The notes below the pieces were generated by a model. The model did not search any database, was not told the origin of the DNA, and saw nothing but the letters and a program-made list of their open reading frames with translations. From positions 1-45,525 of IMG/VR virus record IMGVR_UViG_2531839662_000040: a stretch of DNA of 45,525 nucleotides, one strand, 5' to 3'. Position numbers and translations under genes: made by a program. Within the stretch, counting starts at the first letter, position 1. Each line of letters starts with the position of its first letter. This document shows, in pieces, positions 1-35,872 of the stretch. This DNA is from a virus. Taxonomy: Duplodnaviria > Heunggongvirae > Uroviricota > Caudoviricetes.

Positions 1-234
1 ATGGTTAGAAATGAAGTAATGAACAAAGACTGGCACCGCGAGTACATCGTTGCCGCTGTGCACACCAAAGGTTTTACATTGCGTGAACTTTCTGAACGCG
101 CTGGTCTAAAAAAAGACTCTTTAAAAAATGCACTGTATCGCTCATGCCCTAAATATGAACGCATCATAGCCGATGCTATTGGTGTGGAACCTGCGGAGAT
201 CTGGCCAAGCCGGTATGCCAGTAAGGCGGCGTAA
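1..234 (+). CDS. ner: Ner-like DNA-binding transcriptional regulator (Mu early negative regulator family)
   Basis: 77 aa; motifs DWHR...LKK...WPSRY resemble Mu Ner/Nlp; sits immediately upstream of the transposase with a TAATG overlap. Confidence 0.75.
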   Translation: MVRNEVMNKDWHREYIVAAVHTKGFTLRELSERAGLKKDSLKNALYRSCPKYERIIADAIGVEPAEIWPSRYASKAA

Positions 235-2276
235 TGTTTTATCCAGCCAATGAGCTGGCCGGTCTTCCTGGTTTGCCCGGTACAGTTCAGGGGGTGCGCT
301 GGACGCTCAATCGGATCACAGAGACGCACCCGGAATGGAAGCGCAAGCGTGAAGGCACAAAAGCATTCGAGTATCACATCGACTGCCTGCCCGCTGAAGC
401 GCAGAAAGTTTTACGTAAGCGCCTGACCCATCAGGTCCTGGAAGATACGCAACTGCCCGCAGTGGTTGAGCAGAAGGCAGTTAAAAACGTCACCGTTCGC
501 GATGAACTGGAGGTGATGGTCAAATGCCCGGAACTGGCATTACGCGAAGTCCAGGCACTGACCGACAAGCAAAAGGCCATCGCTGATGCGCGGATATTGC
601 TGGCTACCGAAGTGCATAAACTGCGTGAATACGCAGGAATGTCCAGGACGGCGGCGATAAAACACATCGTTGATGGTATCCGCCAGGAGGCTTTGCCCGA
701 GCGTGTTATTGTGGCAGGTAATACTGCTAATGCCCGACAGGGTAAACGGACTGGCGTCAGTACAGGGAGTTTACAGGAATGGTATTCCGCCTGGCTGATG
801 GCGCGCGGTGATGCCAATCAGTTACTGGCGTTACTGGCTCCCGGTCATCATAAGGGAACACCGTGGGAGCAGGTCTGGTGGTTGAGCGATTTCTTTATGT
901 TCTATCGCTCATGGAAGCGCCCGACCGTTGAATATGCGTATCGCGAGTTTTCAGCCTGGTGGCATGAAAAACACGCGAACGATGCGGGAATGCTGGCGGC
1001 ACTGCCTTCAGTTCACGCAGTAAGACGGGTGTTAAGCAGCGTCCCGGTGATTGTTAAAGAGCGTTTCCGCTCCACCGGTTCAGCCTGGCGTTCGCTCAAT
1101 CCCTTTGTGCGGCGCGACTGGACATCATTACCGGTTAATGCGGTATGGGTCGGGGATGGTCACTGTATGAAAATGACCGCGTTTAACCCCCTGACCGGCA
1201 ATATTTTCCGGCCAGAAGTGACGCTGGTTATGGATGCGGGGCAACGCTTTGTTGTGGGCTGGTCACTGTCCCTGTCGGAGAACGTGATAGCCGTTGCTGA
1301 TGCGTTACGTTACGGCATGGCGCAGCACGGGATACCGCTGATTTATTACTCCGATAACGGGGGCGGTGAAAAAAACCGGGTGCTTGATGCCGATATTACC
1401 GGGATTCTGCCCCGGCTGGGTGTGGAACATCACACGGGGATACCAGGTAACCCGCAGGGGCGCGGGGTGATTGAACGGGCAAACAAAGGAATACCCAAAG
1501 ACGTGGCTCTGAGTTTCCAGACGTACTGCGCAAGGGATGCAGACAAGGAAACCGTAATGATGCAGCAACGGATTATGCAGTCAGCCATTAAGGCCACCCA
1601 CAAAGGGAAAGAGCTGACAAAACGGCAGGTTAAGGCGAGGGATGAAATCCCTACCTTTGAGCAACTGATGGCCGCCATAGAGCTGGAGGTCAGACGCTAT
1701 AACAACCGGCCACACAGCAGCCTACCCCGCAAAGAGGATGGCGAATATTACAGCCCGGCAGCGTATCGCCGGAAACTGATAAAAGAGCAGAATGTTGAAA
1801 TTGATTTCCTGTCGCCGGAAGAACTGCATGAAATGTTCAGACCGGAAGTGACGCGCAAAACATTTCGCGGGGAAATTCAGTTATTCAACAATATTTATTA
1901 CTCGTATGAGCTGGCCGCAGAGCACGGGAATGAAGTCAGGGTCAGTTACGATATTCATGATGCAAACAGCGTCATTGTCCGGCGGGCTGATGGCTCTTAT
2001 ATCTGCGATGCCATCTGGAACGGTAACAAGGTTGATGCCTTCGCTAAACCAGTTATCGAACAAAAACTGGAGAAACGCGTCAGGGGCCGCATTGCACGGG
2101 CCACGCAGAAAATCGAAGAGGCTAAACGCGAGCTTACCCCGGCCATTACGCAGAAGCCTGACTTTAATCTGGGATATGGACTGGAACGTCAGGAGAAAAA
2201 GGAAAAAGAAGAACTTTATTTATTCGTGTCTGACCGTGAGCGCAATTTAAAGAAAAACGGCACAAATAATCGTTAA
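234..2276 (+). CDS. Mu A-like DDE transposase
   Basis: 680 aa, size and position (after ner, before B-like ATPase) match MuA; Mu-type synteny throughout. Confidence 0.85.
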   Translation: MFYPANELAGLPGLPGTVQGVRWTLNRITETHPEWKRKREGTKAFEYHIDCLPAEAQKVLRKRLTHQVLEDTQLPAVVEQKAVKNVTVRDELEVMVKCPELALREVQALTDKQKAIADARILLATEVHKLREYAGMSRTAAIKHIVDGIRQEALPERVIVAGNTANARQGKRTGVSTGSLQEWYSAWLMARGDANQLLALLAPGHHKGTPWEQVWWLSDFFMFYRSWKRPTVEYAYREFSAWWHEKHANDAGMLAALPSVHAVRRVLSSVPVIVKERFRSTGSAWRSLNPFVRRDWTSLPVNAVWVGDGHCMKMTAFNPLTGNIFRPEVTLVMDAGQRFVVGWSLSLSENVIAVADALRYGMAQHGIPLIYYSDNGGGEKNRVLDADITGILPRLGVEHHTGIPGNPQGRGVIERANKGIPKDVALSFQTYCARDADKETVMMQQRIMQSAIKATHKGKELTKRQVKARDEIPTFEQLMAAIELEVRRYNNRPHSSLPRKEDGEYYSPAAYRRKLIKEQNVEIDFLSPEELHEMFRPEVTRKTFRGEIQLFNNIYYSYELAAEHGNEVRVSYDIHDANSVIVRRADGSYICDAIWNGNKVDAFAKPVIEQKLEKRVRGRIARATQKIEEAKRELTPAITQKPDFNLGYGLERQEKKEKEELYLFVSDRERNLKKNGTNNR

Positions 2277-2294
2277 TTTAAAAGGTATTTAATT

Positions 2295-3188
2295 ATGAGT
2301 TTAATTACGCAATTAAATGACGTAATGGCCCGTCGCGGCTTTACGCAGACCCACGTTGCCCGTGCTATTGGTCGTAGCAGCGCCGTTATCAACCAGTATT
2401 TGCAGGGCAAATATCAGGGCGATATGGCTGATATTGAAGAACGTATTTCTGCCTTTGTGACCCGTGAATGGGAAAAGGAAAACAACCGCCGTATTAAAGT
2501 GCGATTTGTCACCACCGGCATGGCCGCCAAAGGGCTGGAGGTGCTGACCTACGCCCATCTGGAGTGTGATATTTGCGTGCTGTATGGCGCGGCGGGTCTG
2601 GGTAAAAGCATGATTCTGAGTGAATATGCCGCCAGAAACCGGGATGTAGTGCTCATTGAAGCCGATATTGGCTATACGGCCAGAAAGTTACTCGATGAAC
2701 TGTGCCGTCAGCTTGGGGTAAAGGTTCACGGCGATATTCGCGAGAAGATTGATGCCTGTGTGCGTGAACTGCGTGGGTCAGGTCGTCTGCTGATGGTGGA
2801 TGAGGCTGAACTGCTCCCCTATCGTGCACTGGAGGTATTGCGCCGTCTGCATGACAAAGCGGGTATCGGGATTGTCCTGGCGGGTATGCCTCACCTTCTG
2901 ATTAACCTTAAGGGCCGTTGTGGTGAGTTCGCTCAATTATACAGCCGCGTGGCGCTGGCGCTTAACCTGGGCGATACGCTGACGCAGGAAGATTTTAACA
3001 AGATTGCCACAGACATGATGCCGGAAGCGGCGGACCCGGAAATTGGTGAGGCACTTTACACACGTTCGCTGGGTAATGCCCGTCGTCTGTTCAAGCTGGC
3101 GCGCGGTGTGTACCGGATTTGTGATATCAGCGATGCACCGGTCAGTGTGCAGGCCATTGATAAATATTCAGAAATGTTAATTCACTGA
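2295..3188 (+). CDS. Mu B-like AAA+ transposition ATPase
   Basis: 297 aa; N-terminal HTH-like region, Walker A GAAGLGKS, Walker B-like LLMVDEAE; directly follows transposase. Confidence 0.8.
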   Translation: MSLITQLNDVMARRGFTQTHVARAIGRSSAVINQYLQGKYQGDMADIEERISAFVTREWEKENNRRIKVRFVTTGMAAKGLEVLTYAHLECDICVLYGAAGLGKSMILSEYAARNRDVVLIEADIGYTARKLLDELCRQLGVKVHGDIREKIDACVRELRGSGRLLMVDEAELLPYRALEVLRRLHDKAGIGIVLAGMPHLLINLKGRCGEFAQLYSRVALALNLGDTLTQEDFNKIATDMMPEAADPEIGEALYTRSLGNARRLFKLARGVYRICDISDAPVSVQAIDKYSEMLIH

Positions 3189-3427
3189 TGGAGAGCAAGA
3201 CGATGGACAAGCAGACCATTAACGCCGTCCGTTCCCGTGCCCGTGTGGCCATCCACACCACTGGCGGTCGTGTAACGGGGCAGCATCACCGTTTACCTGT
3301 GGTTTATGCCTGCCCGCCCGTGGGTGGTCCTGTATGGCCGGTAACGGAAATCATCCAGACATTCAGCGGCCTGCGTCGTGTGGTTAAAACGTCCTGTATC
3401 GACGGCTGTACCGTCGTATGGCAATAA
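3188..3427 (+). CDS. hypothetical early protein (Cys-containing, 79 aa)
   Basis: ORF with TGATG coupling to B stop; alternative ATG at 3203; no recognisable domain. Confidence 0.3.
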   Translation: MESKTMDKQTINAVRSRARVAIHTTGGRVTGQHHRLPVVYACPPVGGPVWPVTEIIQTFSGLRRVVKTSCIDGCTVVWQ

Positions 3428-3442
3428 AACGAGGAATTAAAA

Positions 3443-3694
3443 GTGAGCGTGAAATTAACAATAGTATTTACCGACCTGGGTAATAACCAGTGCCATAACC
3501 TTATTCGGGTGGAAAATGGCGACAATGCCACACTCGAAGAAGCGGCAAGAACTCTGGGGACTGTTGGCGCTATTTGTACGATTCTGAAGGAGAAACACGG
3601 AAATGAACGGCTTGATCTGCAAATCTACCATGACTACGTGAAACAACTGGCACAGGGATGTCCGTATATTCCTCAAGAAACACAAATGCATTGA
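3443..3694 (+). CDS. hypothetical early protein
   Basis: GTG start preceded by GAGGA; N-terminus MSVKLTIVFT resembles that of ORF 3886..4101, suggesting paralogy. Confidence 0.35.
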   Translation: MSVKLTIVFTDLGNNQCHNLIRVENGDNATLEEAARTLGTVGAICTILKEKHGNERLDLQIYHDYVKQLAQGCPYIPQETQMH

Positions 3695-3704
3695 GGGATG
3701 AAAT

Positions 3705-3896
3705 ATGTCACTGGAGCTTGAATTAACTTTCAGCCTGGACAGGCCAGGTAAACCGGAGAAAGCCGTCGCGACGTATCAGTTGCCGCCTGATGTCACGGGA
3801 GAGCAGGTTTCCGACATTATCATAAAAACTCACTGTTTTATGAACGAAATTATTTTTAAATCGTTTGATTTCAAAGGAGAAAAACATGGCGGTTAA
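3705..3896 (+). CDS. hypothetical early protein
   Basis: ATG preceded by GAGGGA; 63 aa. Confidence 0.3.
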   Translation: MSLELELTFSLDRPGKPEKAVATYQLPPDVTGEQVSDIIIKTHCFMNEIIFKSFDFKGEKHGG

Positions 3897-4101
3897 GTTG
3901 GAAGTAATTATCTATACCAATGAAAAAGGCAGGGTTTTAACCCAGATTACAGGAAGTTATTTGAAGGATGGCGCTTCTGAAAGGGAGTTTCAGGTGGCAA
4001 CAGGATTGCATGATGTTATCAAGGAAGCACTGAGAAATGACTACAACGGCGTGAATATTTTTTCTGAAAACGCTGCGCCCTGCGCACATAACACAAATTA
4101 A
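3886..4101 (+). CDS. hypothetical early protein
   Basis: ATG at 3886 preceded by AAGGAG at good spacing (the ORF track's 3865 start is TTG); N-terminus MAVKLEVIIYT similar to ORF 3443. Confidence 0.35.
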   Translation: MAVKLEVIIYTNEKGRVLTQITGSYLKDGASEREFQVATGLHDVIKEALRNDYNGVNIFSENAAPCAHNTN

Positions 4102-4130
4102 TCTGTAAATATCACTGAGGTAATTTAATT

Positions 4131-4775
4131 ATGACGACTGAAAATAAAGTTAAGCAATACACGAAAACTCAAGCACCTGAAGGTTACTGGGTGGATGCCC
4201 GTGGCGTAATGACACCTGAAAGCCTTATCAAAGATATTGACCGCGACCGTGAGCAGCTGGTCGGTGAGCTTGTGGAGATGGTGATTGCTGCCTCTGCCTC
4301 ACTGCGTGAACTGAAACTACGTGCCTTTGGTGATATTCAGGCGTTTATTGACCTGTCGGCGAAAAAATACGGCGCTGTGAAAGGCGGTAAAAAAGGGAAT
4401 ATCACGCTGTACAGCTTTGACGGGCGTTACAAGATTCAGCGCGCCATGCAGGACCGTATCGCGCTTGATGAACGCATTCAGACCGCGAAGGCACTGATTG
4501 ATGACTGCCTGGCTGACTGGACGGAAGGTGCACGCCCTGAAATTAAAGCCATCATCAGCGAGGCATTCAGCACGGACAAGGAAGGCAACATTAACACCGG
4601 GCGCGTTCTGGCTCTGCGTCGTCTCGATATTACGGAGGAACGCTGGGATAACGCCATGAAACTGATTGGTGAAGCCGTCCAGGTGGTTGGCAGCAGAAGC
4701 TATATCCGCGTGTATGAGCGCGTCGGTGATTCTGATGAATACCGCGCAATCCCGCTTGATATTGCAGGGGTTTAA
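4131..4775 (+). CDS. DUF3164-like Mu-like prophage early protein
   Basis: 214 aa; recalled resemblance to the DUF3164 family common in Mu-like early regions; not similar to Mu Gam. Confidence 0.45.
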   Translation: MTTENKVKQYTKTQAPEGYWVDARGVMTPESLIKDIDRDREQLVGELVEMVIAASASLRELKLRAFGDIQAFIDLSAKKYGAVKGGKKGNITLYSFDGRYKIQRAMQDRIALDERIQTAKALIDDCLADWTEGARPEIKAIISEAFSTDKEGNINTGRVLALRRLDITEERWDNAMKLIGEAVQVVGSRSYIRVYERVGDSDEYRAIPLDIAGV

Positions 4776-4776
4776 C

Positions 4777-5010
4777 ATGCATCAGGATATCAAAGAGTAC
4801 AGAGCCGGAAATAGTTGCGCGGCGTATTCGCTGGGCGCGTCCAGAGCAGAACAACGCGGCGATTATGCCGAGGCTGAAAAGCTGTGGCGTAAGGCAGCGC
4901 AAAGCCCGTGTAGTACTCTGCGCCGCATCTGGGCAGAACACCGGGCACAGTTCTGTGCTAATGCTCACCAGAAAGGATGGAAGCCGATTCATGAACGCGA
5001 AACGCTTTAA
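4777..5010 (+). CDS. hypothetical early protein
   Basis: ATG at 4777 two nt after preceding stop; 77 aa. Confidence 0.3.
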   Translation: MHQDIKEYRAGNSCAAYSLGASRAEQRGDYAEAEKLWRKAAQSPCSTLRRIWAEHRAQFCANAHQKGWKPIHERETL

Positions 5011-5182
5011 TCAGTTATATCCGCCTGGTACTCGTTTCATGCACATTGCACATCAGGCGGTGCGTGGTGGTCGGGTGGTAAAAACTGTTGCACCGGCCAG
5101 AGATTTTAAATGTGGTTGTGTGGTTGAAATTAATGTCGAGCCTTATTTCGTAAAAGTCGAAACACTGAAAGCACCGCATTAA
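4991..5182 (+). CDS. hypothetical small protein
   Basis: internal ATG of ORF 4865..5182; overlaps previous ORF end by 20 nt. Confidence 0.25.
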   Translation: MNAKRFNQLYPPGTRFMHIAHQAVRGGRVVKTVAPARDFKCGCVVEINVEPYFVKVETLKAPH

Positions 5183-5212
5183 TTTAATTTGTTTTTAATT
5201 GTTATTTAAAAC

Positions 5213-5247
5213 AGGCGTAAACCCGTCGGGCTGGCTTACGCCTGAAT
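5213..5247. repeat. intergenic hairpin element, copy 1 (GGCGTAAACCCGYCGGGCTGGCTTACGCC)
   Basis: 7-bp stem GGCGTAA/TTACGCC with 15-nt loop, preceded by AT-rich tract, about 15 nt upstream of the next start; near-identical copy at 5837..5871. Confidence 0.4.
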
Positions 5248-5262
5248 TAAGGGGATTTGTAT

Positions 5263-5751
5263 ATGAAAGATAAAGTCTGGGATTTTATTGTTACTCCTGA
5301 AGGTTTTGCTACCCGTTCATCTGAGAAGTTAACCAATGTAACGTTATGGGCGTCATCATTGCTGGGCCATCTGGGAGCACCTGCCGATTTTATGTATGTG
5401 GTACTTGATGCACAGATTGCCGGGAATGCTATGGCCAGTAAGGGGGCTTATATTCAGGGGGATTTGTTCGCCATGATGGCGAATGACACAGCAGCGCTGT
5501 ATATCGCCACACGGAACATACTGACAAGAATATCCATGCTGTCTGACTGTAAGGATATGGAAGACCTCGCATACATCCTTGAAGATGATTTGCTCACTAT
5601 CTCAGGTGTGCAGGAATCCCTCCCGCGTCAGTTGCGGTTTATTGACCTGGTGGAGTCATATAAAGATAAGCCTGATTTTTTCAGATTCGATTCAGTGGAA
5701 TGGAACTGCTGGATGAATATTATCCGCTGGATTCGATTGCCCGTGATGTGA
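5263..5751 (+). CDS. hypothetical protein, possibly frameshifted at 3' end
   Basis: ATG at 5263 with AAGGGG RBS; last ~20 codons are W/C-rich while an overlapping frame (about 5676..5807) reads as ordinary protein. Confidence 0.4.
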   Translation: MKDKVWDFIVTPEGFATRSSEKLTNVTLWASSLLGHLGAPADFMYVVLDAQIAGNAMASKGAYIQGDLFAMMANDTAALYIATRNILTRISMLSDCKDMEDLAYILEDDLLTISGVQESLPRQLRFIDLVESYKDKPDFFRFDSVEWNCWMNIIRWIRLPVM

Positions 5752-5836
5752 AGGCGTTCGTAAAGTCTGTTGACCGTCATTACCGGAAAGCTGAACGTCG
5801 TAGTTAATAAGTCTGTTTTTAATTTTATTGGTATAT

Positions 5837-5871
5837 GGCGTAAACCCGCCGGGGCTGGCTTACGCCTGAAT
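5837..5871. repeat. intergenic hairpin element, copy 2
   Basis: same stem and loop as 5213..5247 with one loop substitution; again just upstream of an ORF start. Confidence 0.4.
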
Positions 5872-6083
5872 CAGAGAGAGTTTATTTATGAATATCGCTA
5901 AGCAAAAAAAGTTCGCCCGCGAAATTAATCTGACAATCGTTTGTTTTAATCGTCTTGCGACCAGTTCTCAATCGACAGCAGATGTTCATTCAGTACCGCA
6001 GCCAGAACGAACTCCCCACGTTCCTGATGGCCGTGCCGGAAGTTGCGTAATTCAGAATTCAGGATGCTGAGGTTCAGACGACC

Positions 6084-6794
6084 ATGAAAGATAAATACAT
6101 TGCCAAAATCAAAAAACTGTTACGCCTTGCCAGAGGAACATCAAGCCCGGAAGAAGCCGCTAACGCTATTGCAAAAGCCCAGGTTTATATGCGCCAGCAT
6201 GGTATCAGCGAAAACGACGCTGAATTGTTCGACATTCAGGAAGCTGCCAGCGCGGGTGCGCCGAGTGATGCCAGTACGCCGCCGCGTTATATGCACATCC
6301 TGTGTGACCTGGTCTGTAAAGCCTTCGGTGTCGAGTGTTACATCTCCGGTGAGTACCGGGCTTCTGGTTCACTCAAACGTCACGTGCGTTTTTATGGCTC
6401 TGACAGCCGCCCGGAAATCGCGGCTTACGCGTTTGATGTGCTTTCCCGTCAGATGATGGCAGAGCGCAAGAAATATCAGGATAAACACTGCAAACGTTGC
6501 GGTCCGTCCACGCGGGTAGCCCGTGGCGACCAGTTCTGCGAAGGCTGGGTCTTTGGTGCCCGTGATGTCATTGCGGTGTATGACGTCTCCCCGGAAGAAA
6601 AAAGCCGCCTTGAGCTTTACAGAAAGAACCTGCACAGCACTAAGGGACTGCGCGACGGGGATATGCGCACAGCTAAAGCGTGTCGGGGTGCAGAGTTTGC
6701 CGCTACTGCGGGTTTTATCGCCAGGAAAAACGCCAGACTGCATCAGGGGGTTAATGGTCAGAGCAACAGACCGCTGGCACTGGGGAGGGTGTAA
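6084..6794 (+). CDS. DUF2786-family protein
   Basis: N-terminus KIKKLLRLARG...EEAANAIAKAQ matches the recalled DUF2786 signature; 236 aa. Confidence 0.5.
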   Translation: MKDKYIAKIKKLLRLARGTSSPEEAANAIAKAQVYMRQHGISENDAELFDIQEAASAGAPSDASTPPRYMHILCDLVCKAFGVECYISGEYRASGSLKRHVRFYGSDSRPEIAAYAFDVLSRQMMAERKKYQDKHCKRCGPSTRVARGDQFCEGWVFGARDVIAVYDVSPEEKSRLELYRKNLHSTKGLRDGDMRTAKACRGAEFAATAGFIARKNARLHQGVNGQSNRPLALGRV

Positions 6795-6796
6795 CG

Positions 6797-7024
6797 ATGG
6801 CTTTTAAACTTCTCAGTGTTACCGAAGCAATATACCAGCCTCCCGGAGAACGCCACGAATACAGGATGAATGACGGTAGCGCGGCGGTTGAGTTTCCCAA
6901 ATATCCGGGGGCTTCCCGGTGGCGGTTCTATGACAGTGCGGGACGCCGGATTATTAAAAGAACCGTGCACAACGCCATGAAAGCCGCCGTAGAACGTCAC
7001 AAAAGAAGGTTTAACTGCAAATGA
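6797..7024 (+). CDS. hypothetical protein
   Basis: 75 aa ORF immediately following previous stop. Confidence 0.3.
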   Translation: MAFKLLSVTEAIYQPPGERHEYRMNDGSAAVEFPKYPGASRWRFYDSAGRRIIKRTVHNAMKAAVERHKRRFNCK

Positions 7025-7240
7025 ATATTGAATTTTATGACTACGGAGTCACCGCAAAAATCATTGTTACATGCTGGTTCTGGGAGTTCCGCGCTATTGC
7101 CGGGTTGTGGATGCGGCGCTGTTTGTGGCCCCTGAAGTACACCATCAGAGCGGTGGAGGTCTTTTAATGAGAACCGTCATCACCGGTAAAACGGTCCCGA
7201 TGTTACGGGCGTTTAAAGTGGCAAAACAGGAGGCGACACG

Positions 7241-7555
7241 ATGAGCATTGATAAAACGATAACGATAGATGTAGCCATGAATACAGGTCTGGCGCTTATC
7301 GGTTATGGCTATATCACTTTTATGTCATTCAGGTGGTTGATTTCTTCGGTCTTTAAACAATGTGAAAAACGTCGCTGCAAAGACAAGCGCGTGAAGGCAC
7401 TAAATGCGTTTAATGACGCTTTTGATATTGACCGTATGCAACAGGGCGACCCGGCACGCGTAATTACCCGGGGAGATGTCGTGATTTTGGTATACCGGAG
7501 TGAAAAAATGAGCAGGAGGCGGCGCAGTGAACCAGCAAACCAGAATAAGCGATAA
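7241..7555 (+). CDS. small membrane protein (one predicted TM helix)
   Basis: hydrophobic segment NTGLALIGYGYITFMSFRWLISSVF followed by basic tail; RBS AGGAGG upstream. Confidence 0.35.
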   Translation: MSIDKTITIDVAMNTGLALIGYGYITFMSFRWLISSVFKQCEKRRCKDKRVKALNAFNDAFDIDRMQQGDPARVITRGDVVILVYRSEKMSRRRRSEPANQNKR

Positions 7556-7715
7556 GAGTCTGACCAGACTGATTGCCGATGCGGACAAGGTGCTGGAGCG
7601 GAACACCCCCGTTGCCGATGAGGAATGGTGGCAGGATTTCCGGGCCGCAATGCTGGAACTTCAGGAGCGCCGCAGGGCTGACAGTACAGAGTCAGTAGTA
7701 AATACAGGAGAATGA
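7527..7715 (+). CDS. hypothetical protein
   Basis: GTG-start ORF, acidic 62 aa. Confidence 0.25.
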   Translation: MNQQTRISDKSLTRLIADADKVLERNTPVADEEWWQDFRAAMLELQERRRADSTESVVNTGE

Positions 7716-7719
7716 AACG

Positions 7720-7896
7720 ATGAAAAACCGTAAAGCAATACGACTTCTTTTACAGCGACCTGTGTGTATGGTGTCGCTGGTTATCAGCAACCATAAGATA
7801 GCTGTACTCCATCCATTTGGTCAGGTGGCTTTTACCGTAAATCGTAAACCCACCGCGTCACAGAACAGGCGGAAGAAAGGGTACGCAGTAAGATGA
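7720..7896 (+). CDS. small basic protein (MKNRKA paralog 1, 58 aa)
   Basis: ATG just after AGGAG; not in the ORF track (<60 aa); shares start and C-terminal QNRRK motif with the next ORF. Confidence 0.25.
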   Translation: MKNRKAIRLLLQRPVCMVSLVISNHKIAVLHPFGQVAFTVNRKPTASQNRRKKGYAVR

Positions 7897-8069
7897 AAAA
7901 CCGTAAGGCAAAAATTCTGTTAGCTCGCAGAAACGGTGTTGGGGTCTGGCGATGGTTGAGGATTAGTAACAGACGAGTGAGGTTGACGGGGTGTTGCGGG
8001 GTGATGTTGCACAGCTGTTGCAAAAAGCCCAGCGCGGCGCAAAACCGCAGGAAAAATCACGGTATGTAA
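7893..8069 (+). CDS. small basic Cys-rich protein (MKNRKA paralog 2, 58 aa)
   Basis: ATGA overlap with paralog 1 stop; first 19-21 nt near-identical to paralog 1. Confidence 0.25.
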   Translation: MKNRKAKILLARRNGVGVWRWLRISNRRVRLTGCCGVMLHSCCKKPSAAQNRRKNHGM

Positions 8070-8081
8070 AGGAGGTGCCAG

Positions 8082-8492
8082 GTGAAGAAAATGGTTTTTG
8101 TGGCGGCATTGCTGACAATTACCCAACAGGCGCAGGCTTCAGCAGTTATTGTGGCATCTGCCGCTGCGACCACGGCTGCTGTAGCTGCTGCAAACTCTGC
8201 GAATATCGCAAGCCAACAGGAGCGAGACGCTGCTAACGCATCAGCCAGTGCTCTCCCGATTTCTGTTAAGGGCAGTAAGCAACATCTGGGGTTCATAACG
8301 TGCGGTAAGCGTTCTTATGAAGCTGTAGGCTCACTGGGATGTACGGTATATGGCGACAGTGAGAGCAGAGAAATTCCATGGAAAACGTGGCCCGGATACG
8401 TTCTTGGCTCGAAGCTCCCGGCCAGTTATGAGGTAAACGCCGTGTCGTTTGATCACTATAACGGCGTGGCAACTGTCTATTTCACATACTGA
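8082..8492 (+). CDS. secreted protein with N-terminal signal peptide
   Basis: GTG start 6 nt after AAAGGAGG; MKKMVFVAALLTITQQAQA signal-like N-terminus followed by Ala-rich region. Confidence 0.5.
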   Translation: MKKMVFVAALLTITQQAQASAVIVASAAATTAAVAAANSANIASQQERDAANASASALPISVKGSKQHLGFITCGKRSYEAVGSLGCTVYGDSESREIPWKTWPGYVLGSKLPASYEVNAVSFDHYNGVATVYFTY

Positions 8493-8596
8493 GGCCCGGC
8501 ATGAAATTTTCTGAATCACGGAGCAACAACACGATGAAAGCCATCACCGTAACTCGACGTTCCTGATTTCGCGGGTTGTTTAAACAGTAATCAAAT

Positions 8597-8624
8597 GCAG
8601 ACCAAAACATATGTTTTGGTCTGC
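8597..8624. promoter_or_regulatory. perfect 28-bp palindrome GCAGACCAAAACATATGTTTTGGTCTGC
   Basis: read directly; second partial half-site TTTTGGTC 12 nt downstream; sits before ORF 8647. Confidence 0.35.
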
Positions 8625-8646
8625 CAAAAGTAGTGTTTTGGTCATT

Positions 8647-8925
8647 ATGAAGATTGAACAAATCGGAATAGCTGCTTTCAGGCAGCAGGCTGAAAGCGGT
8701 GGCGTGGATGAGTTCGTTGTGCAGCGGTTCGGTGGTGTGTATCACCTCTTCGCTGTGAATCGCCACGCCGGGGTGTCCTATTTTCTACAGGAACGCCGTG
8801 GCGATTACAAGACATGGCTGTCTCTTGACCGTGCCGCTGCGTTCTTGTCAGGGATTGGCGTTTCACGTTTTACCGTGCGTTTTGAGGATAACAAACATGC
8901 TGAAAAAGATGATCGGGGCCATTAA
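8647..8925 (+). CDS. hypothetical protein
   Basis: ATG at 8647 (ORF track 8611 start lies inside the palindrome); 92 aa. Confidence 0.3.
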   Translation: MKIEQIGIAAFRQQAESGGVDEFVVQRFGGVYHLFAVNRHAGVSYFLQERRGDYKTWLSLDRAAAFLSGIGVSRFTVRFEDNKHAEKDDRGH

Positions 8926-9295
8926 AGCCGGTCAGGCGTATCTGGGGTGGGATGATGCCCTTTATCGCCAGACGCTGGCCCGCCTGACCGGTAAAACCAG
9001 CACCACACGCTGCAATCTCGATGAACTGCGCATCATCCGGGAATACATGCACGAACAGGGATTCCCGCGCAAGGCACCCGCTGGTAAAGGTCGCCGCCCT
9101 CGTGTTGCAATGAGCAGAAAATCAGTATTATCCAAAATTGAAGCGTTGCTGGCTGATGCCGGTCGTTCCTGGGCGTATGCAGAAGGACTGGCATCTCACA
9201 TGTATAAGCAACATGTGATCGAATGGCTGACGGATGAACAGCTTTTTGGAGTGATGGTGGCGCTGGTTAAAGATTCAAGAAGGAGAAATCAATGA
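8897..9295 (+). CDS. GemA-like (Mu gp16 family, DUF1018) regulatory protein
   Basis: internal ATG of ORF 8798; LGWDDALYRQTLARLTGKTS...ELRIIREYMHEQGF resembles recalled GemA N-terminal signature. Confidence 0.5.
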   Translation: MLKKMIGAIKAGQAYLGWDDALYRQTLARLTGKTSTTRCNLDELRIIREYMHEQGFPRKAPAGKGRRPRVAMSRKSVLSKIEALLADAGRSWAYAEGLASHMYKQHVIEWLTDEQLFGVMVALVKDSRRRNQ

Positions 9296-9768
9296 TGAAA
9301 AAATGGTTGTTTTGTTTAGTAGGGGTTATTTTCTCTTGTTCTGTGCTGGCACAGACAGAGGAACAGGCGCAAAAGGAACTGAAACGTTATCAGGATATGA
9401 AGCCATTGGCTGAACAGATGCTTCGGGAAAGTGGAAAACTTTATTACGCTATGCCAGAAGCTGCATCGCAGTATCAGCAGGGAAATATTGAAGAGTGGAA
9501 GAATATCAAAAAAGGACTAAAACAACTGGATGAACAGGCCAGTAAACTGGGGGACGACCCGCTTGATCCTGTGTATGGTTCCTGCATAAAAATGAAAAAC
9601 CAGCTACAGGATTACTGGTCTAACGTTATCAGGGATGACAGGCAGTTTCTGGAGCGTTCAAGAAATCAGTTTAAAGAATATCGTATGGATTGTTTTGATT
9701 CGTTTGTTTTTGGTAAAGAGCAAATAGAATCAAGAAAAGGCCTGGTTATTCTAGACCTGACTAAATAA
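9292..9768 (+). CDS. secreted or periplasmic protein with signal peptide
   Basis: MMKKWLFCLVGVIFSCSVLAQ signal-like N-terminus; followed by a strong terminator. Confidence 0.45.
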   Translation: MMKKWLFCLVGVIFSCSVLAQTEEQAQKELKRYQDMKPLAEQMLRESGKLYYAMPEAASQYQQGNIEEWKNIKKGLKQLDEQASKLGDDPLDPVYGSCIKMKNQLQDYWSNVIRDDRQFLERSRNQFKEYRMDCFDSFVFGKEQIESRKGLVILDLTK

Positions 9769-9779
9769 GACTTAGTTTA

Positions 9780-9806
9780 GCCCCTGCCATGCAGGGGCTT
9801 TTTTGT
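9780..9806 (+). terminator. rho-independent terminator
   Basis: GCCCCTGC-CATG-CAGGGGC stem-loop followed by TTTTTTG. Confidence 0.6.
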
Positions 9807-9810
9807 GGTC

Positions 9811-9839
9811 TGTACAGGCGATCATGTATGGCTATAATA
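9811..9839 (+). promoter_or_regulatory. candidate sigma70 promoter upstream of Mor/C-like gene
   Basis: TGTACA, 17-bp spacer, TATAAT; about 29 nt upstream of ATG 9868. Confidence 0.3.
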
Positions 9840-9867
9840 ACAGTAAGTTACTACCGGAGACGCCATC

Positions 9868-10335
9868 ATGCAGACCTTCAGTGAAACAGATCTTCGCGAT
9901 GCGCAGGCACTGCTGCCCGATTCCGTGCAGCAACTGATTAGCGTGATTGGCTTCCCCGCCCTGACCCGGTTAATCCGTTCTTTTGGTGGCGTGACGTTAA
10001 GCGGTAAAACCGGCGCACACGCCGGACGCACCGGCGGTGTCCATGCCCTGTTACATGATGTGCTGACCGAAGACGAAATCAACAAACTGATCCGTTTTCT
10101 TGGCGGCGCACCGTTTTACATTCCCCGTTGCGATCATGCGTTACGTGCCCTGCGTAACACCCGTTTTATGGCTGATTTACAGCAGCATGTAAAAGGCGGA
10201 TGCTCACACCGGCAGGCGCTGGCACTGCTCTGTCCCCGTTACGGGATTTCAGACCGGTACGCATGGCAGCTGATACACCGACGACAAAAACAGACTTCGC
10301 TGAAAAGCCCCACCCAGGTGGGGCTTTTTGATTAA
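9868..10335 (+). CDS. Mor/C-family transcriptional activator
   Basis: 155 aa; FGG...YIPR core and C-terminal HTH-like GISDRYAWQLI typical of the Mu Mor/C family; positioned before the lysis/late genes. Confidence 0.65.
   Translation: MQTFSETDLRDAQALLPDSVQQLISVIGFPALTRLIRSFGGVTLSGKTGAHAGRTGGVHALLHDVLTEDEINKLIRFLGGAPFYIPRCDHALRALRNTRFMADLQQHVKGGCSHRQALALLCPRYGISDRYAWQLIHRRQKQTSLKSPTQVGLFD
10307..10329 (+). terminator. stem-loop plus T-tract inside the 3' end of the Mor/C-like CDS
   Basis: GCCCCACC-CAGGTGGGGC followed by TTTTT. Confidence 0.4.
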
Positions 10336-10360
10336 TGGGCCTCAGAAAAAGGAGACACTT

Positions 10361-10639
10361 ATGACCAACTATACGGCACTTGGCGAGTATACAGCCTACT
10401 CAGAGCAGGCCAGGGATGCTGCCGGACGCCGCTTCGCTTATATGAAAAATCTGGCCAGCCAGCTAAACCGAATGGCTGAACAACCGGATATGGTTGTTCA
10501 GGAAGAAGCGTTGCAGTGTGCCATTGCTGACATCATCGCCAGCGAAAACGAGATGCGCGCAGCGATGGAAAAGGCGAACGCCTCTGCTCCGCTTTGTAAT
10601 AAACCTCTTATTACGCCGGATTCTCTTTCCCGCTTCTGA
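10361..10639 (+). CDS. hypothetical protein
   Basis: ATG at 10361 preceded by AAAGGAG; 92 aa. Confidence 0.35.
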   Translation: MTNYTALGEYTAYSEQARDAAGRRFAYMKNLASQLNRMAEQPDMVVQEEALQCAIADIIASENEMRAAMEKANASAPLCNKPLITPDSLSRF

Positions 10640-10659
10640 TTTATCACCCCGCCGCCGCG

Positions 10660-10686
10660 GGGTGCTGAACTCCCCCAGCAGTACCC
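10660..10686 (+). promoter_or_regulatory. conserved late-operon motif, copy 1 (GGGTGCTGAACTCCCCCAGCAGTACCC)
   Basis: one of three copies sharing the 9-nt core GTGCTGAAC (copies 1-2 share 23 of 27 nt); upstream of the lysis cassette; TTATC element about 20 nt upstream. Confidence 0.4.
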
Positions 10687-10822
10687 ACCACACCAGACCG
10701 TTTACCCTGTCCACTCAGACCACAAGGCACCTTAAGGGATAGCGCCCGGCAAAAGTCATTCTGTGCCTTTGACCGGGTGTTATTTACGGGCCGTCAGTGG
10801 CTCAGATTTACAGGAGAAACTC

Positions 10823-11215
10823 ATGTCTGAACCCTTATCAGGCGGCGGAGCTGTGGCAGTCACCATCGGTGGTGCCAGTGTGTTTGGTCTTCTCACCAAT
10901 ACCGATTTCGGGGTCGTGGTGGGCGCGTTTGCCGGGGCGCTTTTTGTTGTCACGCAGCAGAAAGAAATCCCGGTCTGGCGAATGGCCATCCACCTGCTCG
11001 TCGCGTTTGTGGTTGGCGTTCTGGGGGCTGGCGTGGCTGCGTCACTGATGCAGTGGCTGACCCACTACAACGACAAGCCGCTAGATGCATTGTGTGCGGT
11101 CGGTGTCTCGGCGTTATCCATCAAGATACTGACCTTTCTTTATCAACAGGAAATTTCATCGCTGTTCGGCCTGTTTTCCAGACTGCGCGGCGGAGGGGGT
11201 GGAAATGGAAAGTAG
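10823..11215 (+). CDS. holin-like membrane protein
   Basis: ATG at 10823 after CAGGAGAAAC; several hydrophobic helices; first gene of lysis cassette. Confidence 0.4.
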   Translation: MSEPLSGGGAVAVTIGGASVFGLLTNTDFGVVVGAFAGALFVVTQQKEIPVWRMAIHLLVAFVVGVLGAGVAASLMQWLTHYNDKPLDALCAVGVSALSIKILTFLYQQEISSLFGLFSRLRGGGGGNGK

Positions 11216-11501
11216 CCTTGCCGGTATCGTGAACGTCTGGCTGTGTCTCGCCATTGTATTGGGGTTGTTTGTGTATCGCCGCCACGGTGCGGCGCATAAA
11301 CCGATGATTACCTGGCTGGCGTACTGGCTGATGCTCGGATACATCATCATCCCGTTCCGCTGGCTGTCCGGTACATACACGCACTCCAGCTGGCTGGTTG
11401 TGGCGCTGAATCTGGTTTTCTGTGCGCTTATCGTGTGGGCGCACGGGAATTTGTCAAAAATCCTTTCGTTACTGAGGCATCCACATGAAATCAAAAGATG
11501 A
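11199..11501 (+). CDS. small membrane protein (holin or antiholin candidate)
   Basis: 100 aa with about three hydrophobic segments; overlaps endolysin start. Confidence 0.4.
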   Translation: MEMESSLAGIVNVWLCLAIVLGLFVYRRHGAAHKPMITWLAYWLMLGYIIIPFRWLSGTYTHSSWLVVALNLVFCALIVWAHGNLSKILSLLRHPHEIKR

Positions 11502-12030
11502 CATTTTTGATGAAGTCCTGGGCAAAGAAGGCGGTTACGTCAATCACCCTGACGATAAGGGCGGTCCGACCAAATGGGGCATTACGGAAAAAGTCGCCCG
11601 CGCCCACGGATATCGTGGCGATATGCGCGATTTAACCCGCGAACAGGCGCTGGACATCCTTGAAGCTGATTACTGGTATGGCCCGCGATTTGACCAGATC
11701 GCCGCATTATCCCCTGATATTGCCGCAGAGCTGTGTGATACCGGTGTGAATATGGGGCCAACCGTGGCGTCCAGAATGCTTCAGCGCTGGCTGAATGTGT
11801 TCAATCTGCGCGGCAGGATGTACCCGGATATGGACGCAGACGGACGCATCGGGCCTCGTACCATCAGTGCATTGCGCGCCTTCCTGAATTATCGCGGTCA
11901 GGACGGCGAACGGGTGATGCTGAAGGCCCTGAACTGCACGCAGGGTGAGCGCTATCTGGAACTGGCAGAGAAACGCGAGGCTAACGAATCGTTTGTTTAT
12001 GGCTGGCTGGAGGGGCGCGTGGCGGTATGA
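11485..12030 (+). CDS. endolysin, GH108 lysozyme with C-terminal peptidoglycan-binding domain
   Basis: N-terminal EGGYVNHPDDKGGPTKWGIT is the GH108 signature; 181 aa. Confidence 0.8.
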   Translation: MKSKDDIFDEVLGKEGGYVNHPDDKGGPTKWGITEKVARAHGYRGDMRDLTREQALDILEADYWYGPRFDQIAALSPDIAAELCDTGVNMGPTVASRMLQRWLNVFNLRGRMYPDMDADGRIGPRTISALRAFLNYRGQDGERVMLKALNCTQGERYLELAEKREANESFVYGWLEGRVAV

Positions 12031-20572: not shown

Positions 20573-20914
20573 ATGGAAAAGGTGATTGAAATTACCGCCC
20601 GCCGTGAGGGTTTTCGCCGCTGCGGTGTGGCACACAGCGCAACCACGAAGGCATGGCCTGTGGATGCGTTCACCCCGGAACAGCTGGCGGTGCTGAAGGC
20701 GGACCCCATGCTGATTGTGGTGGAGCGTGATAAAGCGTCCGGCCAGAACGACGCGGACCAAAGTGATGAACTGGTCGCACAACTGGATGCCGAACGCCAG
20801 AAAGTCAGCGAACTGACGGCGCAACTGGAAGAAGAACGCCAGAAAGTCAGTGAACTGACCGCACAGCTGAACGCCGCACAGAAAACACAAAAAGCGGACA
20901 AAAAGGAGAAGTAA
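20573..20914 (+). CDS. hypothetical coiled-coil protein with internal tandem repeat
   Basis: 113 aa; ERQKVSELTAQL repeated twice. Confidence 0.4.
   Translation: MEKVIEITARREGFRRCGVAHSATTKAWPVDAFTPEQLAVLKADPMLIVVERDKASGQNDADQSDELVAQLDAERQKVSELTAQLEEERQKVSELTAQLNAAQKTQKADKKEK
20792..20869 (+). repeat. 42-bp-period direct repeat inside CDS 20573..20914
   Basis: GAACGCCAGAAAGTCAGYGAACTGACSGCRCARCTG twice. Confidence 0.5.
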
Positions 20915-33686: not shown

Positions 33687-35303
33687 ATGTCTGTATTAAT
33701 CTCAGGCGCGCTTATTAATGGCGCTGGCGTTCCGATGGCGGAATGCAAAATTTATTTAGATGCACTGGTTAATACCAGTGAGGTGGTCACTGAATCATTC
33801 GCGGTTATTGAAACCGATGCGGCGGGACAGTATGCCTTTGAAGCGCAAAAAGGCAAATACACCGTACACATCAAGCAAAAGAACGGCCCCAAGTGCTGCG
33901 TGGGTGATATCGCTGTATACGATGACTCAAAGCCCGGCACACTGAATGATTTTCTGACCGCCCCCAATGAAGGCGACCTCAAACCCGACGTGGTGAAACG
34001 CTTTGAGGAAATGGTGGCGCAGGCGCAGCAGAGCGCGGAAGCGGCAGCGGAAAGCGAACGACAGGCCGGGCAACACGCAGCTGATGCGCAGAAGATTAAG
34101 GGTGATTGCCAGACGCTGGCAGATAATGTTCAGCAGAATACAAATGCTGTGGAGGAAAACACGCAGCGCGTTGAACAGCTGGCCTCAGAAGTTGAGCTGA
34201 ACGCCGGGCAGGTGCAGCAGGGCGTGCAGAATGTTACTGATGCGGTAAAAAAGGCGCAGCAGGCAGCAAAGAATTCTGCTGACAGTGCCACTGACTCAAA
34301 AAACAGTGCTGACAACGCCGCCCTGAGCGAACAGAACGCACAAAAACACGCGCAGAAAGCTGAACAACATGAGCAGCAGACTAAACAATATGCGCAGGAT
34401 GCAGCGACCGCCGCAGAATCAGCAGAGAACGCCAAAGGCGAAATTGACGAAATTCTGGATGGCGGCTATCTCAAGATAAAAAACAACTTTCAGGAAATTG
34501 TTGATGCTGGCCCCTCAGCACTGGCTCAGGCCCAATGGAATTTACAGATTTCCGGGGTGAAAAATAAACAGGTAATTGCCACCCCTTATACATGGCCATC
34601 CAGAACTGAGTATGAACAAAGGGTGCATCTGCCACTCGCCGGGGCTTACGGATTTGGCTACACGTTTGAAGACAAAAGCCAGGGACGTATAAACCTTAGC
34701 GAAAGTTACACCGGCTCCTGGTGGTCACAGTGGGTAAAGCCGGGGCGTTATTACGTTACAACCAGTGATAAACAATATCTGACACCAGACGGGTACACGT
34801 ACGGGGTTGTTGATGTGCTGTGGCTTAACGGTAACGCATATAATGACGCTTCGCAGGTTCTTAAAATACTGGCTTTTTACGATGGTGACGGATGCCTGCA
34901 TATCGGCAAGCGCGTTGGTCAGAGCAACTGGTCAATAAGCTGGCGCAAGCTGACATCGCTCCCTGATGTCAGGGCCATGCTGTATTCATATATTTATAAT
35001 AATTACAACAGAGAATGGCGTGACCCGGAGCTGGGAGGTTTAATTCTGGCGTCATACCAGGGAACCGCAGACGGCGACACAAATATAAAAGTATCCCGTG
35101 GTCAGACTTATCCCGGCTCACGACTTGCACCTGTGGCGATAGAATGCCAGTTCACTCCATCCGGTACGTATGCCGCAACACCGCGATTCCATATTACCGG
35201 CTGCAAGAGCAAATCACTCCCCGGAACTTATATTTCACTGTCTGGAGCACCCACAACATACAGCGACCAGGCTTTTGTGGCGCTATTCATGAGGATTGCA
35301 TGA
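33687..35303 (+). CDS. side tail fibre protein (lambdoid Stf-like N-terminus)
   Basis: 538 aa; MSVLISGALINGAG N-terminus of lambdoid Stf type; Ala/Gln-rich coiled middle; distinct C-terminal domain. Confidence 0.65.
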   Translation: MSVLISGALINGAGVPMAECKIYLDALVNTSEVVTESFAVIETDAAGQYAFEAQKGKYTVHIKQKNGPKCCVGDIAVYDDSKPGTLNDFLTAPNEGDLKPDVVKRFEEMVAQAQQSAEAAAESERQAGQHAADAQKIKGDCQTLADNVQQNTNAVEENTQRVEQLASEVELNAGQVQQGVQNVTDAVKKAQQAAKNSADSATDSKNSADNAALSEQNAQKHAQKAEQHEQQTKQYAQDAATAAESAENAKGEIDEILDGGYLKIKNNFQEIVDAGPSALAQAQWNLQISGVKNKQVIATPYTWPSRTEYEQRVHLPLAGAYGFGYTFEDKSQGRINLSESYTGSWWSQWVKPGRYYVTTSDKQYLTPDGYTYGVVDVLWLNGNAYNDASQVLKILAFYDGDGCLHIGKRVGQSNWSISWRKLTSLPDVRAMLYSYIYNNYNREWRDPELGGLILASYQGTADGDTNIKVSRGQTYPGSRLAPVAIECQFTPSGTYAATPRFHITGCKSKSLPGTYISLSGAPTTYSDQAFVALFMRIA

Positions 35304-35872
35304 TGCAGATAAAAGAAATTACCAGCCCCCACTACACCGAATCCGGTGCGATTGACTGCGAAGTTTTATTTGAAGGGATGGATGAAGCCGTTCCGTACAC
35401 AGCCACACCAGAAGACACAGCAACAACAGGCCAGCAAATTTGGCAGGAACTGCAAAGCGGCAAATGGGGCGAGATTGCCCCGTTCACCGCATCACCTGAA
35501 CTTATCGCAGCAGCAAAGGACGCCAAAAAACGGGAAATTGAGGCATGGCGCACAGAACAGGAAGCGCAGCCATTCACGTTCGAATGGAACGGCCGCACAT
35601 GGAACGCTGGCCCCGACTCAATGGCCCGTCTTTATCCTGTGGTAATGGCTGCAAAATCTGATACGGCACGAACTGCCCTTGCGTGGGGTGACGCCGATAA
35701 TCAACAGGTGAAACTGTCGATGCCGGAACTGGAAGAACTGGCAGCCGCGATGGCGCAGGCGCAGGTTGAGCGCAATGACGAGATTTATCAACGCCAGCGT
35801 GAGATGAAGGAGGAACTGAATAACCTGGATGATTTACGCTCAATCAGAGCGATGACGATTAGCAGCAGTTAG
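35300..35872 (+). CDS. tail fibre assembly protein (Tfa)
   Basis: ATGA overlap with fibre stop; 190 aa; highly similar to the Tfa at 44953..45525. Confidence 0.65.
   Translation: MMQIKEITSPHYTESGAIDCEVLFEGMDEAVPYTATPEDTATTGQQIWQELQSGKWGEIAPFTASPELIAAAKDAKKREIEAWRTEQEAQPFTFEWNGRTWNAGPDSMARLYPVVMAAKSDTARTALAWGDADNQQVKLSMPELEELAAAMAQAQVERNDEIYQRQREMKEELNNLDDLRSIRAMTISSS

Follow-up and report, generated by a model that had tools for sequence, protein, structure and literature searches.

What does a conserved hairpin, present in two copies, do between the early genes of a transposable phage? The window, that is, the whole 45,525-nt stretch of DNA analysed here, is a Mu-like transposable prophage of E. 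coli UMNF18, and the 3 kb surrounding the element are 100% identical to the UMNF18 chromosome. The element sits in the early region of this prophage. Specifically, the gene order is repressor, Ner-like HTH protein, MuA-type transposase, MuB-type AAA ATPase, small genes, DUF3164, ANR, 63-aa gene, hairpin, 181-aa gene, hairpin, and DUF2786/DUF7168, with Mor, lysis, and terminase genes farther on. Because every annotated gene in the interval from transposase to Mor is on the + strand, the hairpins lie inside the early operon. The 63-aa early gene (4991–5182, + strand; PHROG 5591, function unknown) is the gene directly 5' of the primary hairpin in nearly all related phages. The 181-aa gene (5263–5807, + strand; PHROG 7741) is an accessory cassette with a hairpin on either side, and in the window it is frameshifted, the T run at 5676–5681 being shorter by 1 nt.

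The original prediction described two near-identical hairpins, and both are found as matches to a sequence pattern and to a covariance model. Copy 1 (GGCGTAAACCCGTCGGGCTGGCTTACGCC) occupies 5214–5242 and copy 2 (GGCGTAAACCCGCCGGGGCTGGCTTACGCC) occupies 5837–5866, both on the + strand; the element had been placed 1 nt too early, at 5213. The two share the form GGCGTAA-N15/16-TTACGCC, and the pattern GGCGTAA-N8-25-TTACGCC has two matches in the window, compared with 0.00 expected from 100 shuffles. A covariance model of the element, based on 32 distinct relatives, matches these two copies and no others in the 45.5-kb window, with scores of 58.7 and 61.9 bits (E ~1e-16 to 1e-17). In copy 1, the primary syntenic copy, CA/TG lengthens the 7-bp outer stem GGCGTAA/TTACGCC to 9 bp, pairing in the inner helix is imperfect, and the + strand RNA is predicted to fold with −17 kcal/mol (z = −3.2). 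Copy 2, the secondary copy that closes the cassette at its 3' end, has the same sequence as the commonest form of the element.

The repeat is wider than the stem. As predicted, an AT-rich tract precedes each hairpin: tract 1 (5183–5213, + strand, 31 nt) lies directly 3' of the stop codon TAA at 5180–5182, and tract 2 (5808–5836, + strand, 29 nt) lies 3' of the stop codon at 5805–5807, so that the hairpins start 31 and 29 nt after the respective stop codons. About 25 nt of this upstream tract (TGTTTTTAATT.TTATT) are common to both copies, as is a downstream TGAAT. After copy 1 (5243–5262, + strand), the TGAAT box precedes AAGGGG, the Shine-Dalgarno sequence of the downstream gene, and after copy 2 (5867–5887, + strand) it precedes a purine-rich Shine-Dalgarno-like GAGAGAG. 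The distance from the end of the stem to the ATG is 20 nt for the ATG at 5263 and 21 nt for that at 5888, rather than the roughly 15 nt first proposed.

Of the two early ORFs said to follow the hairpins, the one starting at 5263 is the 181-aa cassette, and the one starting at 5888 is doubtful. The latter, a + strand ORF of 60 aa (5888–6070), has no RefSeq annotation and overlaps the remnant of a 72-aa minus-strand gene, of which the C-terminal 46 codons persist (5949–6086, − strand); its substitutions are sparse, with few variable sites. The 72-aa gene is complete in E. coli E2348/69 and in a related prophage locus, L008, where it has its own promoter-like sequence and Shine-Dalgarno sequence; in E2348/69 the hairpin element lies around 2,721,837–2,721,880 of NC_011601.1. 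The DUF2786/DUF7168 gene follows at 6084–6794 on the + strand.

Whether other copies exist anywhere was the point on which the original prediction could have failed, and they are found in E. coli genomes, viral contigs, cultured phages, and species-level loci. The hairpin occurs in 59 of 5426 complete E. coli genomes, at 1–4 places each, and the prophage segment is matched in 58 of the same 5426; the hairpin therefore belongs to the phage and is no repeat of the host. Scanning IMG/VR for the exact pattern yielded 44 viral contigs with the hairpin, and it is also present in two cultured phages, Klebsiella phage ST405-OXA48phi1.1 and Pseudomonas fluorescens phage VW-6B. In a species-level sample of 79 loci, anchored on DUF3164 with one genome per species, 23 loci have the hairpin, with one match per locus in all 23. 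All are from Enterobacterales, namely Photorhabdus, Xenorhabdus, Yersinia, Pantoea, Mixta, Erwinia, Kosakonia, Trabulsiella, Phytobacter, Edwardsiella, Morganella, Klebsiella, and Citrobacter. The hairpin is limited to one Mu-like phage lineage.

The primary copy is syntenic. The 63-aa gene and the hairpin occur together in 20 species-level loci; in one further locus (L095) the gene is present and the hairpin lies beyond the scanned range, and in at least three (L021, L031, and L052) the hairpin occurs without the gene. In relatives, the hairpin lies 20–47 nt past a stop codon and 18–28 nt ahead of the next ATG. An AT-rich tract with a TTTAAA-like box is found 5' of every copy, that of the Pseudomonas phage included, and at least 17 of the 25 nt closest upstream of the hairpin are A or T in the collected instances. 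Orientation relative to early transcription is the same in all instances found. No mention of the hairpin element was found in the literature. The hairpin is thus a real, conserved cis element that is apparently undescribed. Stem-loops between the genes of an operon are ordinary in kind; what sets this one apart is its conservation, its role at cassette boundaries, and above all its occupation of a slot that is filled by hammerhead ribozymes in related phages.

Across 43 divergent loci, the hairpin has a mean identity of 85% (74–100%), compared with 60% (52–65%) for the DNA of the adjacent 63-aa gene. Because a non-coding element is better conserved than its coding neighbours, the hairpin is under selection of its own, with a stronger constraint than the gene beside it. 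The general claim of function at the RNA or DNA level, as opposed to a chance stem, therefore holds, given copies in many phages and conservation above that of coding DNA. Conservation is concentrated in the outer stem GGCGTAA/TTACGCC and in the 5' half of the loop (AACCCGYCRGG), which are nearly invariant among loci whose DUF3164 proteins are down to 40–55% identical.

Pairing of the stem is supported by the alignment and by compensatory variants. In the 32-sequence alignment, 76.6% of the cells pair, compared with 21–42% when the 3' partners are slid by 1–3 columns, and the observed covariation score is reached by 0 of 500 shuffles, a control that does not amount to a probability for related sequences. 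Most positions of the outer stem are invariant and hence uninformative on pairing. The informative positions are those that vary: three pairs are changed on both sides in GGCGCAG/CTGCGCC (L002, L003, and L033), the stem of Pantoea rodasii is GGCGTGA/TCACGCC, a Morganella locus (L068) has a G-U stem pair, and the pair flanking the stem switches between U-A and A-U among relatives. In the imperfect inner helix, the 5' strand is conserved and the 3' strand is variable. Folding energies and G-U pairs do not assign the element to a strand, the signal being mixed across variants. Specifically, the commonest variant folds better as minus-strand RNA (−18.2 kcal/mol, compared with −13.9 kcal/mol for the plus strand), and for the Klebsiella-type and some other variants the plus-strand fold is the more stable one.

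Several familiar identities do not fit the element. An intrinsic terminator was rejected on either strand. The GC-rich stem-loop is there (7–9 bp, −17 kcal/mol on the + strand), but the T run is inadequate: on the + strand it is absent, the stem being followed by TGAATTAAGG or TGAATCAGAG, and the minus-strand tails are short and inconsistent. A consensus terminator scan called neither hairpin while calling 9779–9799, and the canonical terminators elsewhere in the same operon (9779–9799 and 10303–10328) look different. A sigma-70 promoter within the AT-rich tract was rejected as well, the promoter scan being empty at 5180–5260 and 5805–5885; the aligned upstream tracts share the TTTAAA-like box but have no TANNNT at a fixed position and no consistent −10/−35 elements. 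REP/BIME repeats are barriers to mRNA decay between cistrons, and REPs are dispersed over the host chromosome in hundreds of copies. The hairpin resembles them as a GC-rich stem-loop without a T run between the cistrons of an operon; it differs in being restricted to prophage-bearing genomes, at the few places per genome given above, and in having an unrelated sequence, and a host repeat of this kind was rejected.

Comparison with known RNA families was likewise negative. The best overlapping match to an Rfam 15 family, to Lnt RNA on the minus strand, reaches 27 bits, below the gathering score of 55 (E = 1.8); an Rfam scan of positions 1–12000 gives no ribozyme match, and the related hairpin-bearing loci give no Rfam match at the gathering threshold. 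A type II hammerhead, intact or degenerate, was rejected because the sequence scores 0–3 bits against a hammerhead covariance model across 5100–5950; a hammerhead has three stems around a conserved catalytic core (CUGANGA, GAAA, and UH). An integron attC site is an inverted repeat with imperfect arms and the core sites RYYYAAC and GTTRRRY; the arms GGCGTAA/TTACGCC lack the GTTRRRY core, and no integron integrase is annotated in the surrounding 15 kb. An operator of the repressor or Ner was rejected, as the intergenic region between c and ner contains no GGCGTAA half-sites; nor is GGCGTAAA over-represented elsewhere.

Two possible RNA activities were also rejected. The hairpin does not appear to keep the ribosome-binding site (RBS) open: across 67 instances, the Shine-Dalgarno/AUG region has a predicted probability of being unpaired of 0.479 for the native sequence and 0.477 with the hairpin scrambled (p = 0.72), and 0.441, slightly below native, with the hairpin deleted. 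A substrate of RNase III was rejected in that copy 1 has extended pairing of its flanks (18-nt arms, 83% complementary), which is not apparent in the flanks of other variants.

The DUF3164 loci without the hairpin provide the main clue to its function. A recurrent two-hairpin motif in these loci is the type II hammerhead ribozyme (Rfam RF02276), with Rfam scores of 64–75 bits compared with a gathering score of 37. Using a covariance model built from seven sequences of related prophages, we found 23 hammerheads in 21 of the 79 loci, all on the + strand and 300–2000 nt 3' of DUF3164. These loci are all in non-enterobacterial hosts, e.g. Pseudomonas, Rheinheimera, Undibacterium, Aquitalea, and Cupriavidus, and none of the 79 loci has both the hairpin and the hammerhead. 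The hammerheads run from the stop codon of one gene to 10–25 nt ahead of the next ATG, and some loci (L124 and L109) have two; one example is the hammerhead at 3978–4053 of L101, from a Pseudomonas or Rheinheimera relative.

The genes downstream of the two elements are homologous. Three protein families are encoded directly 3' of the hairpin in some phages and directly 3' of the hammerhead in others, the latter being more distant relatives in the case of DUF2786/DUF7168. Specifically, 14 distinct DUF2786/DUF7168 proteins are linked to the hairpin and 3 to the hammerhead; for a family of ~90 aa, the numbers are 8 and 1 (pairwise E = 7e-14), and for a family of ~145 aa they are 3 and 3. Judged from gene order and protein homology, the hairpin is positionally equivalent to the type II hammerheads of related phages. 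This equivalence could reflect lineage alone, since in the species-level sample the hairpin loci are from Enterobacterales and the hammerhead loci are not. The mutual exclusivity tracks host taxonomy, and it may result from one ancient replacement rather than from repeated convergence.

Perreault et al. (2011, PMC3088659) reported multiple hammerheads around individual prophage genes; these cut polycistronic RNA both in vitro and in E. coli, and their probable role is to divide long phage transcripts into gene-length mRNAs. In vivo cleavage has been described for type II hammerheads near phage genes (PMC8782182), and the purpose of hammerheads between phage genes is still described as open (PMC6765202). 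The hairpin shares with them a slot in Mu-like prophages that lies after a stop codon, before an RBS, and upstream of homologous genes, and both elements occur in multiple copies around single accessory genes. There is no sequence or structural similarity between the two: the hairpin is a single stem-loop without a catalytic core, and any cleavage at the hairpin would need a protein nuclease.

Taken together with the layout of the element, this points to an intercistronic processing or stability module in the polycistronic early mRNA; a host nuclease would cut it, and it would serve in addition as a crossover point for cassettes. We assign this reading a probability of roughly one half. In the early + strand transcript, the module would comprise a single-stranded AU-rich tract, a stable stem-loop, and the RBS of the next gene. 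A host endoribonuclease would cut within or beside the AU-rich tract, and the stem-loop would then cap either the downstream cistron at its new 5' end or the upstream cistron at its 3' end. The messages of the accessory genes would thereby be split from the transposase/core message and would acquire a stability and translation of their own. The cleavage, the nuclease responsible, and the effect on expression are steps that we infer. Among the options named in the original prediction, i.e., a processing site, a translational operator, or a small regulatory site, the processing site appears to be the best supported because hammerhead ribozymes fill the equivalent slot in relatives. The hairpin module would then be the enterobacterial counterpart of the type II hammerheads, with the same proposed job in the same slot.

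RNase E is probably the likeliest candidate for the nuclease, because an AU-rich single strand beside a stem-loop is the classical architecture of its substrates; the RNase E motif itself is too degenerate for a sequence test. The same layout is found in 5'-terminal stem-loops that protect a downstream message. RNase E sites with a stem-loop between cistrons and stabilising 5' stem-loops are exemplified by T4 gene 32 mRNA and the ompA 5' UTR. The element presents this architecture, with an AU-rich single strand adjoining a stable stem-loop in a transcribed intercistronic region, and after the predicted cleavage the hairpin would finish at or near the new 5' end. The Mu-like hairpin differs in being far more conserved in sequence than is usual at such sites.

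The second part of this reading, a role in cassette exchange, is suggested by comparison of phage arrangements, which form a nested series between the 63-aa gene and DUF2786. In the simplest form, the 63-aa gene, one hairpin, and DUF2786 follow each other; in the second, a 200-nt segment lies between hairpin and DUF2786; in the form found in the window, the 181-aa gene and a second hairpin are inserted between the first hairpin and the segment; and in the largest, DUF7448 and a variant hairpin precede the 181-aa gene in addition. The extra DUF7448 cassette is that of L002, with its own, different hairpin at the cassette 3' end, and the 181-aa cassette is missing from arrangements such as L008 and E2348/69. 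Similarity between arrangements stops just past TGAAT. In L008, the upstream flank of copy 1 (with one mismatch) is joined to the exact downstream flank of copy 2, and this arrangement is the product that would be expected of recombination between two hairpin copies. Because the element is a conserved direct repeat of 35–60 bp at gene boundaries, it would serve as a crossover site at which accessory cassettes are gained and lost. Comparison of the junctions thus shows the hairpin as a probable crossover point for accessory cassette exchange, which is compatible with an RNA role.

The same junctions raise the question of whether recombination is the whole story, i.e., whether the hairpin is a pure linker whose repeats mediate homologous cassette exchange and are spread by it, with no role in RNA. 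Cassette presence/absence variants join exactly at hairpin/TGAAT, the copies within a phage are direct repeats, and the layout resembles the linkers of T4-type phages known as PeSL (promoter-early stem-loop), which are conserved intergenic motifs that combine an AT-rich part with a stem-loop (Arbiol et al. 2010, PMC2839356). PeSL motifs extend as far as the Shine-Dalgarno/ATG of the following gene, cluster among accessory ORFs that are non-essential, and contain the indel junctions between related phages (PMC2839356). Likewise, the Mu-like stem-loop motif ends at the Shine-Dalgarno/ATG of an accessory ORF and contains indel junctions. It differs from PeSL in having no recognisable sigma-70 promoter, the promoter scan and the aligned tracts giving no −35/−10-like hexamers within the motif; in phage type and transcription strategy, since the hairpin lies in the single early operon of a Mu-like phage; and in that terminator activity is not expected of it, because it has no T run. 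A pure linker is unlikely, since any conserved sequence would serve for recombination and a hairpin with compensatory stem variants would be left unexplained, as would the single copy at a fixed syntenic position in most phages (23 of 23 species-level loci) and the ribozyme in the equivalent slot of relatives.

The near-invariant stem and 5' half of the loop (GGCGTAAACCCGYCRGG) show more conservation than a simple structural cap needs, which hints at sequence-specific recognition by a candidate protein or nuclease. Consequently, the hairpin might instead be an operator for a phage RNA-binding (or DNA-binding) protein that controls translation or stability of the accessory genes. Its position immediately 5' of an RBS and its tight linkage to the 63-aa gene would suit such an operator, and the 63-aa protein is a candidate recognition partner, though the hairpin occurs without its gene in the three loci named above. 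Adjacency alone predicts the linkage. Moreover, the 63-aa protein has a shallow alignment, an AlphaFold model of low confidence (pLDDT 65.7), and no informative family match. The asymmetric conservation of the inner helix argues against a symmetric DNA-binding site for a dimer, and half-sites are missing from the repressor/Ner operator region. As the equivalence with hammerheads would also be left unexplained, we regard a protein operator as improbable.

A further possibility starts from the opposite strand, where the element could be a terminator or insulator that stops antisense transcription from reverse-oriented morons of the accessory region before it enters the transposase operon. The minus-strand RNA of the commonest variant is a nearly perfect 13-bp stem with G-U pairs, the minus-strand stem of copy 1 is followed by UGUUUUAAAU, and in E2348/69 and L008 the complete 72-aa minus-strand gene, with its promoter-like sequence, faces the hairpin. 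However, the T tract is short and inconsistent (e.g. ATTTAAAA and AAAATTAA, with ATATACCA in copy 2), the consensus terminator scan called neither hairpin, folding favours the plus strand in other variants, the downstream genes of most phages are all on the + strand, and the conserved TGAAT would have no explanation. A minus-strand terminator is therefore quite unlikely.

We consider it highly improbable that the AU-rich tract and hairpin together are an unrecognised RNA-cleavage motif, functionally interchangeable with type II hammerheads in Mu-like phages. Such a motif would be either self-cleaving, as a new minimal ribozyme class, or a high-specificity substrate of one host or phage nuclease, and the near-invariant GGCGUAAACCCGYCRGG would be its recognition or catalytic determinant. 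A new small self-cleaving RNA of an undescribed class, interchangeable with the hammerhead, is extremely unlikely in its own right, because a slot shared with type II hammerheads upstream of homologous genes, conservation at a ribozyme-like level, and the occurrence of other ribozyme classes in similar phage-like gene contexts (PMC8782182) are set against a single imperfect hairpin with no visible conserved pseudoknot or multi-helix junction, conserved nucleotides mostly in the stem rather than in an unpaired core, 0–3 bits with the hammerhead model, and no Rfam match.

Under the preferred reading, an intercistronic processing or stability module that doubles as a crossover point, phages whose hosts (E. 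coli and Klebsiella) are genetically tractable have a simple hairpin in place of a ribozyme ahead of homologous genes. If the hairpin and the hammerhead are functionally equivalent, the selection acting at this slot could be dissected with E. coli RNase mutants and swaps of the two elements; selection may be for separating the transcripts, for protecting a 5' end, or for altering how accessory genes are translated. The hairpin is also a sequence marker of the point at which the conserved core of these prophages gives way to exchangeable accessory cassettes, and as such it is of use in annotation and in tracing how new genes are acquired by these phages. In two loci (L015 and L042), three hairpins lie ~459 nt apart, with one small gene before each.

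In Mu-like prophages from Pseudomonas, Rheinheimera, Undibacterium, Aquitalea, Cupriavidus and other hosts, type II hammerhead ribozymes (Rfam RF02276) sit between early genes. Specifically, one ribozyme is located at 3279-3361 of locus L097 and one at 3977-4053 of L101, while L124 carries two, at 4193-4276 and 4936-5017; further type II hammerheads are present in 17 other loci. At these loci, the ribozyme starts at the stop codon of the upstream gene, and a pseudoknot partner adjoins the Shine-Dalgarno sequence of the downstream gene. Locus L080, from a Mu-like prophage of Haemophilus influenzae, contains in its early region a match to Rfam sRNA-Xcc1 (5404-5487) that scores 60.5 bits, above the gathering score of 53.

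In the window, hairpin 2, the second of the two conserved stem-loops, is separated from the DUF2786 gene by 200 nt (5888-6086) that represent what is left of the 3' part of a 72-aa gene on the minus strand. The corresponding segment of L129 spans 2555-2925. E. coli E2348/69 and IMG/VR contig L008 carry the complete gene; there it has a strong Shine-Dalgarno sequence and a promoter-like sequence and converges on the hairpin. An unannotated 60-aa ORF on the plus strand, starting at 5888 and equipped with a Shine-Dalgarno sequence, overlaps this remnant; the coding strand of the segment could be either minus (72-aa remnant) or plus (60-aa ORF). In the Trabulsiella prophages L057 and L058, the gene 3' of the hairpin encodes a 59-aa Cys4 zinc-finger protein (CPRC...CHFC), which seems to resemble the Mu translational activator Com.

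The 181-aa gene bracketed by the two hairpins is frameshifted in the window by a shorter T run, with an ORF stop at 5751 and a second ORF at 5700-5807. The run (5676-5681) has 6 T, one fewer than the 7 T of strain B1172 and of the RefSeq entry for the strain itself; the discrepancy is either a sequencing difference in the homopolymer or a genuine inactivating mutation.

Upstream of mor, the early region contains two canonical intrinsic terminators. The first (9779-9799) consists of AGCCCCTGC..GCAGGGGCT followed by TTTTTT. The second (10303-10328; AAAAGCCCCACC..GGTGGGGCTTTT) is bidirectional and weakly matches the RsmY terminator region and STnc100.

Elsewhere in the window, adjacent 58-aa ORFs at 7720-7896 and 7893-8069 have a common N-terminal MKNRKA motif, which suggests that a small gene or repeat was duplicated in tandem. 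At 8597-8643, GCAGACCAAAACAT/ATGTTTTGGTCTGC forms a perfect palindrome of 28 nt, with an incomplete third copy (CCAAAAGTAGTGTTTTGGTC) after it; this could be a protein-binding site. Three 42-nt coding repeats (GAACTG..CAGAAAGTCAG.) are arranged in tandem at 20768-20893. Four collinear blocks of 109-300 nt, with 76-87% identity, are shared between 33897-35851 and 43760-45510, about 9.7-9.9 kb apart. These blocks may have arisen by duplication of tail-fibre or host-range segments, and one of the copies may be part of a neighbouring element.
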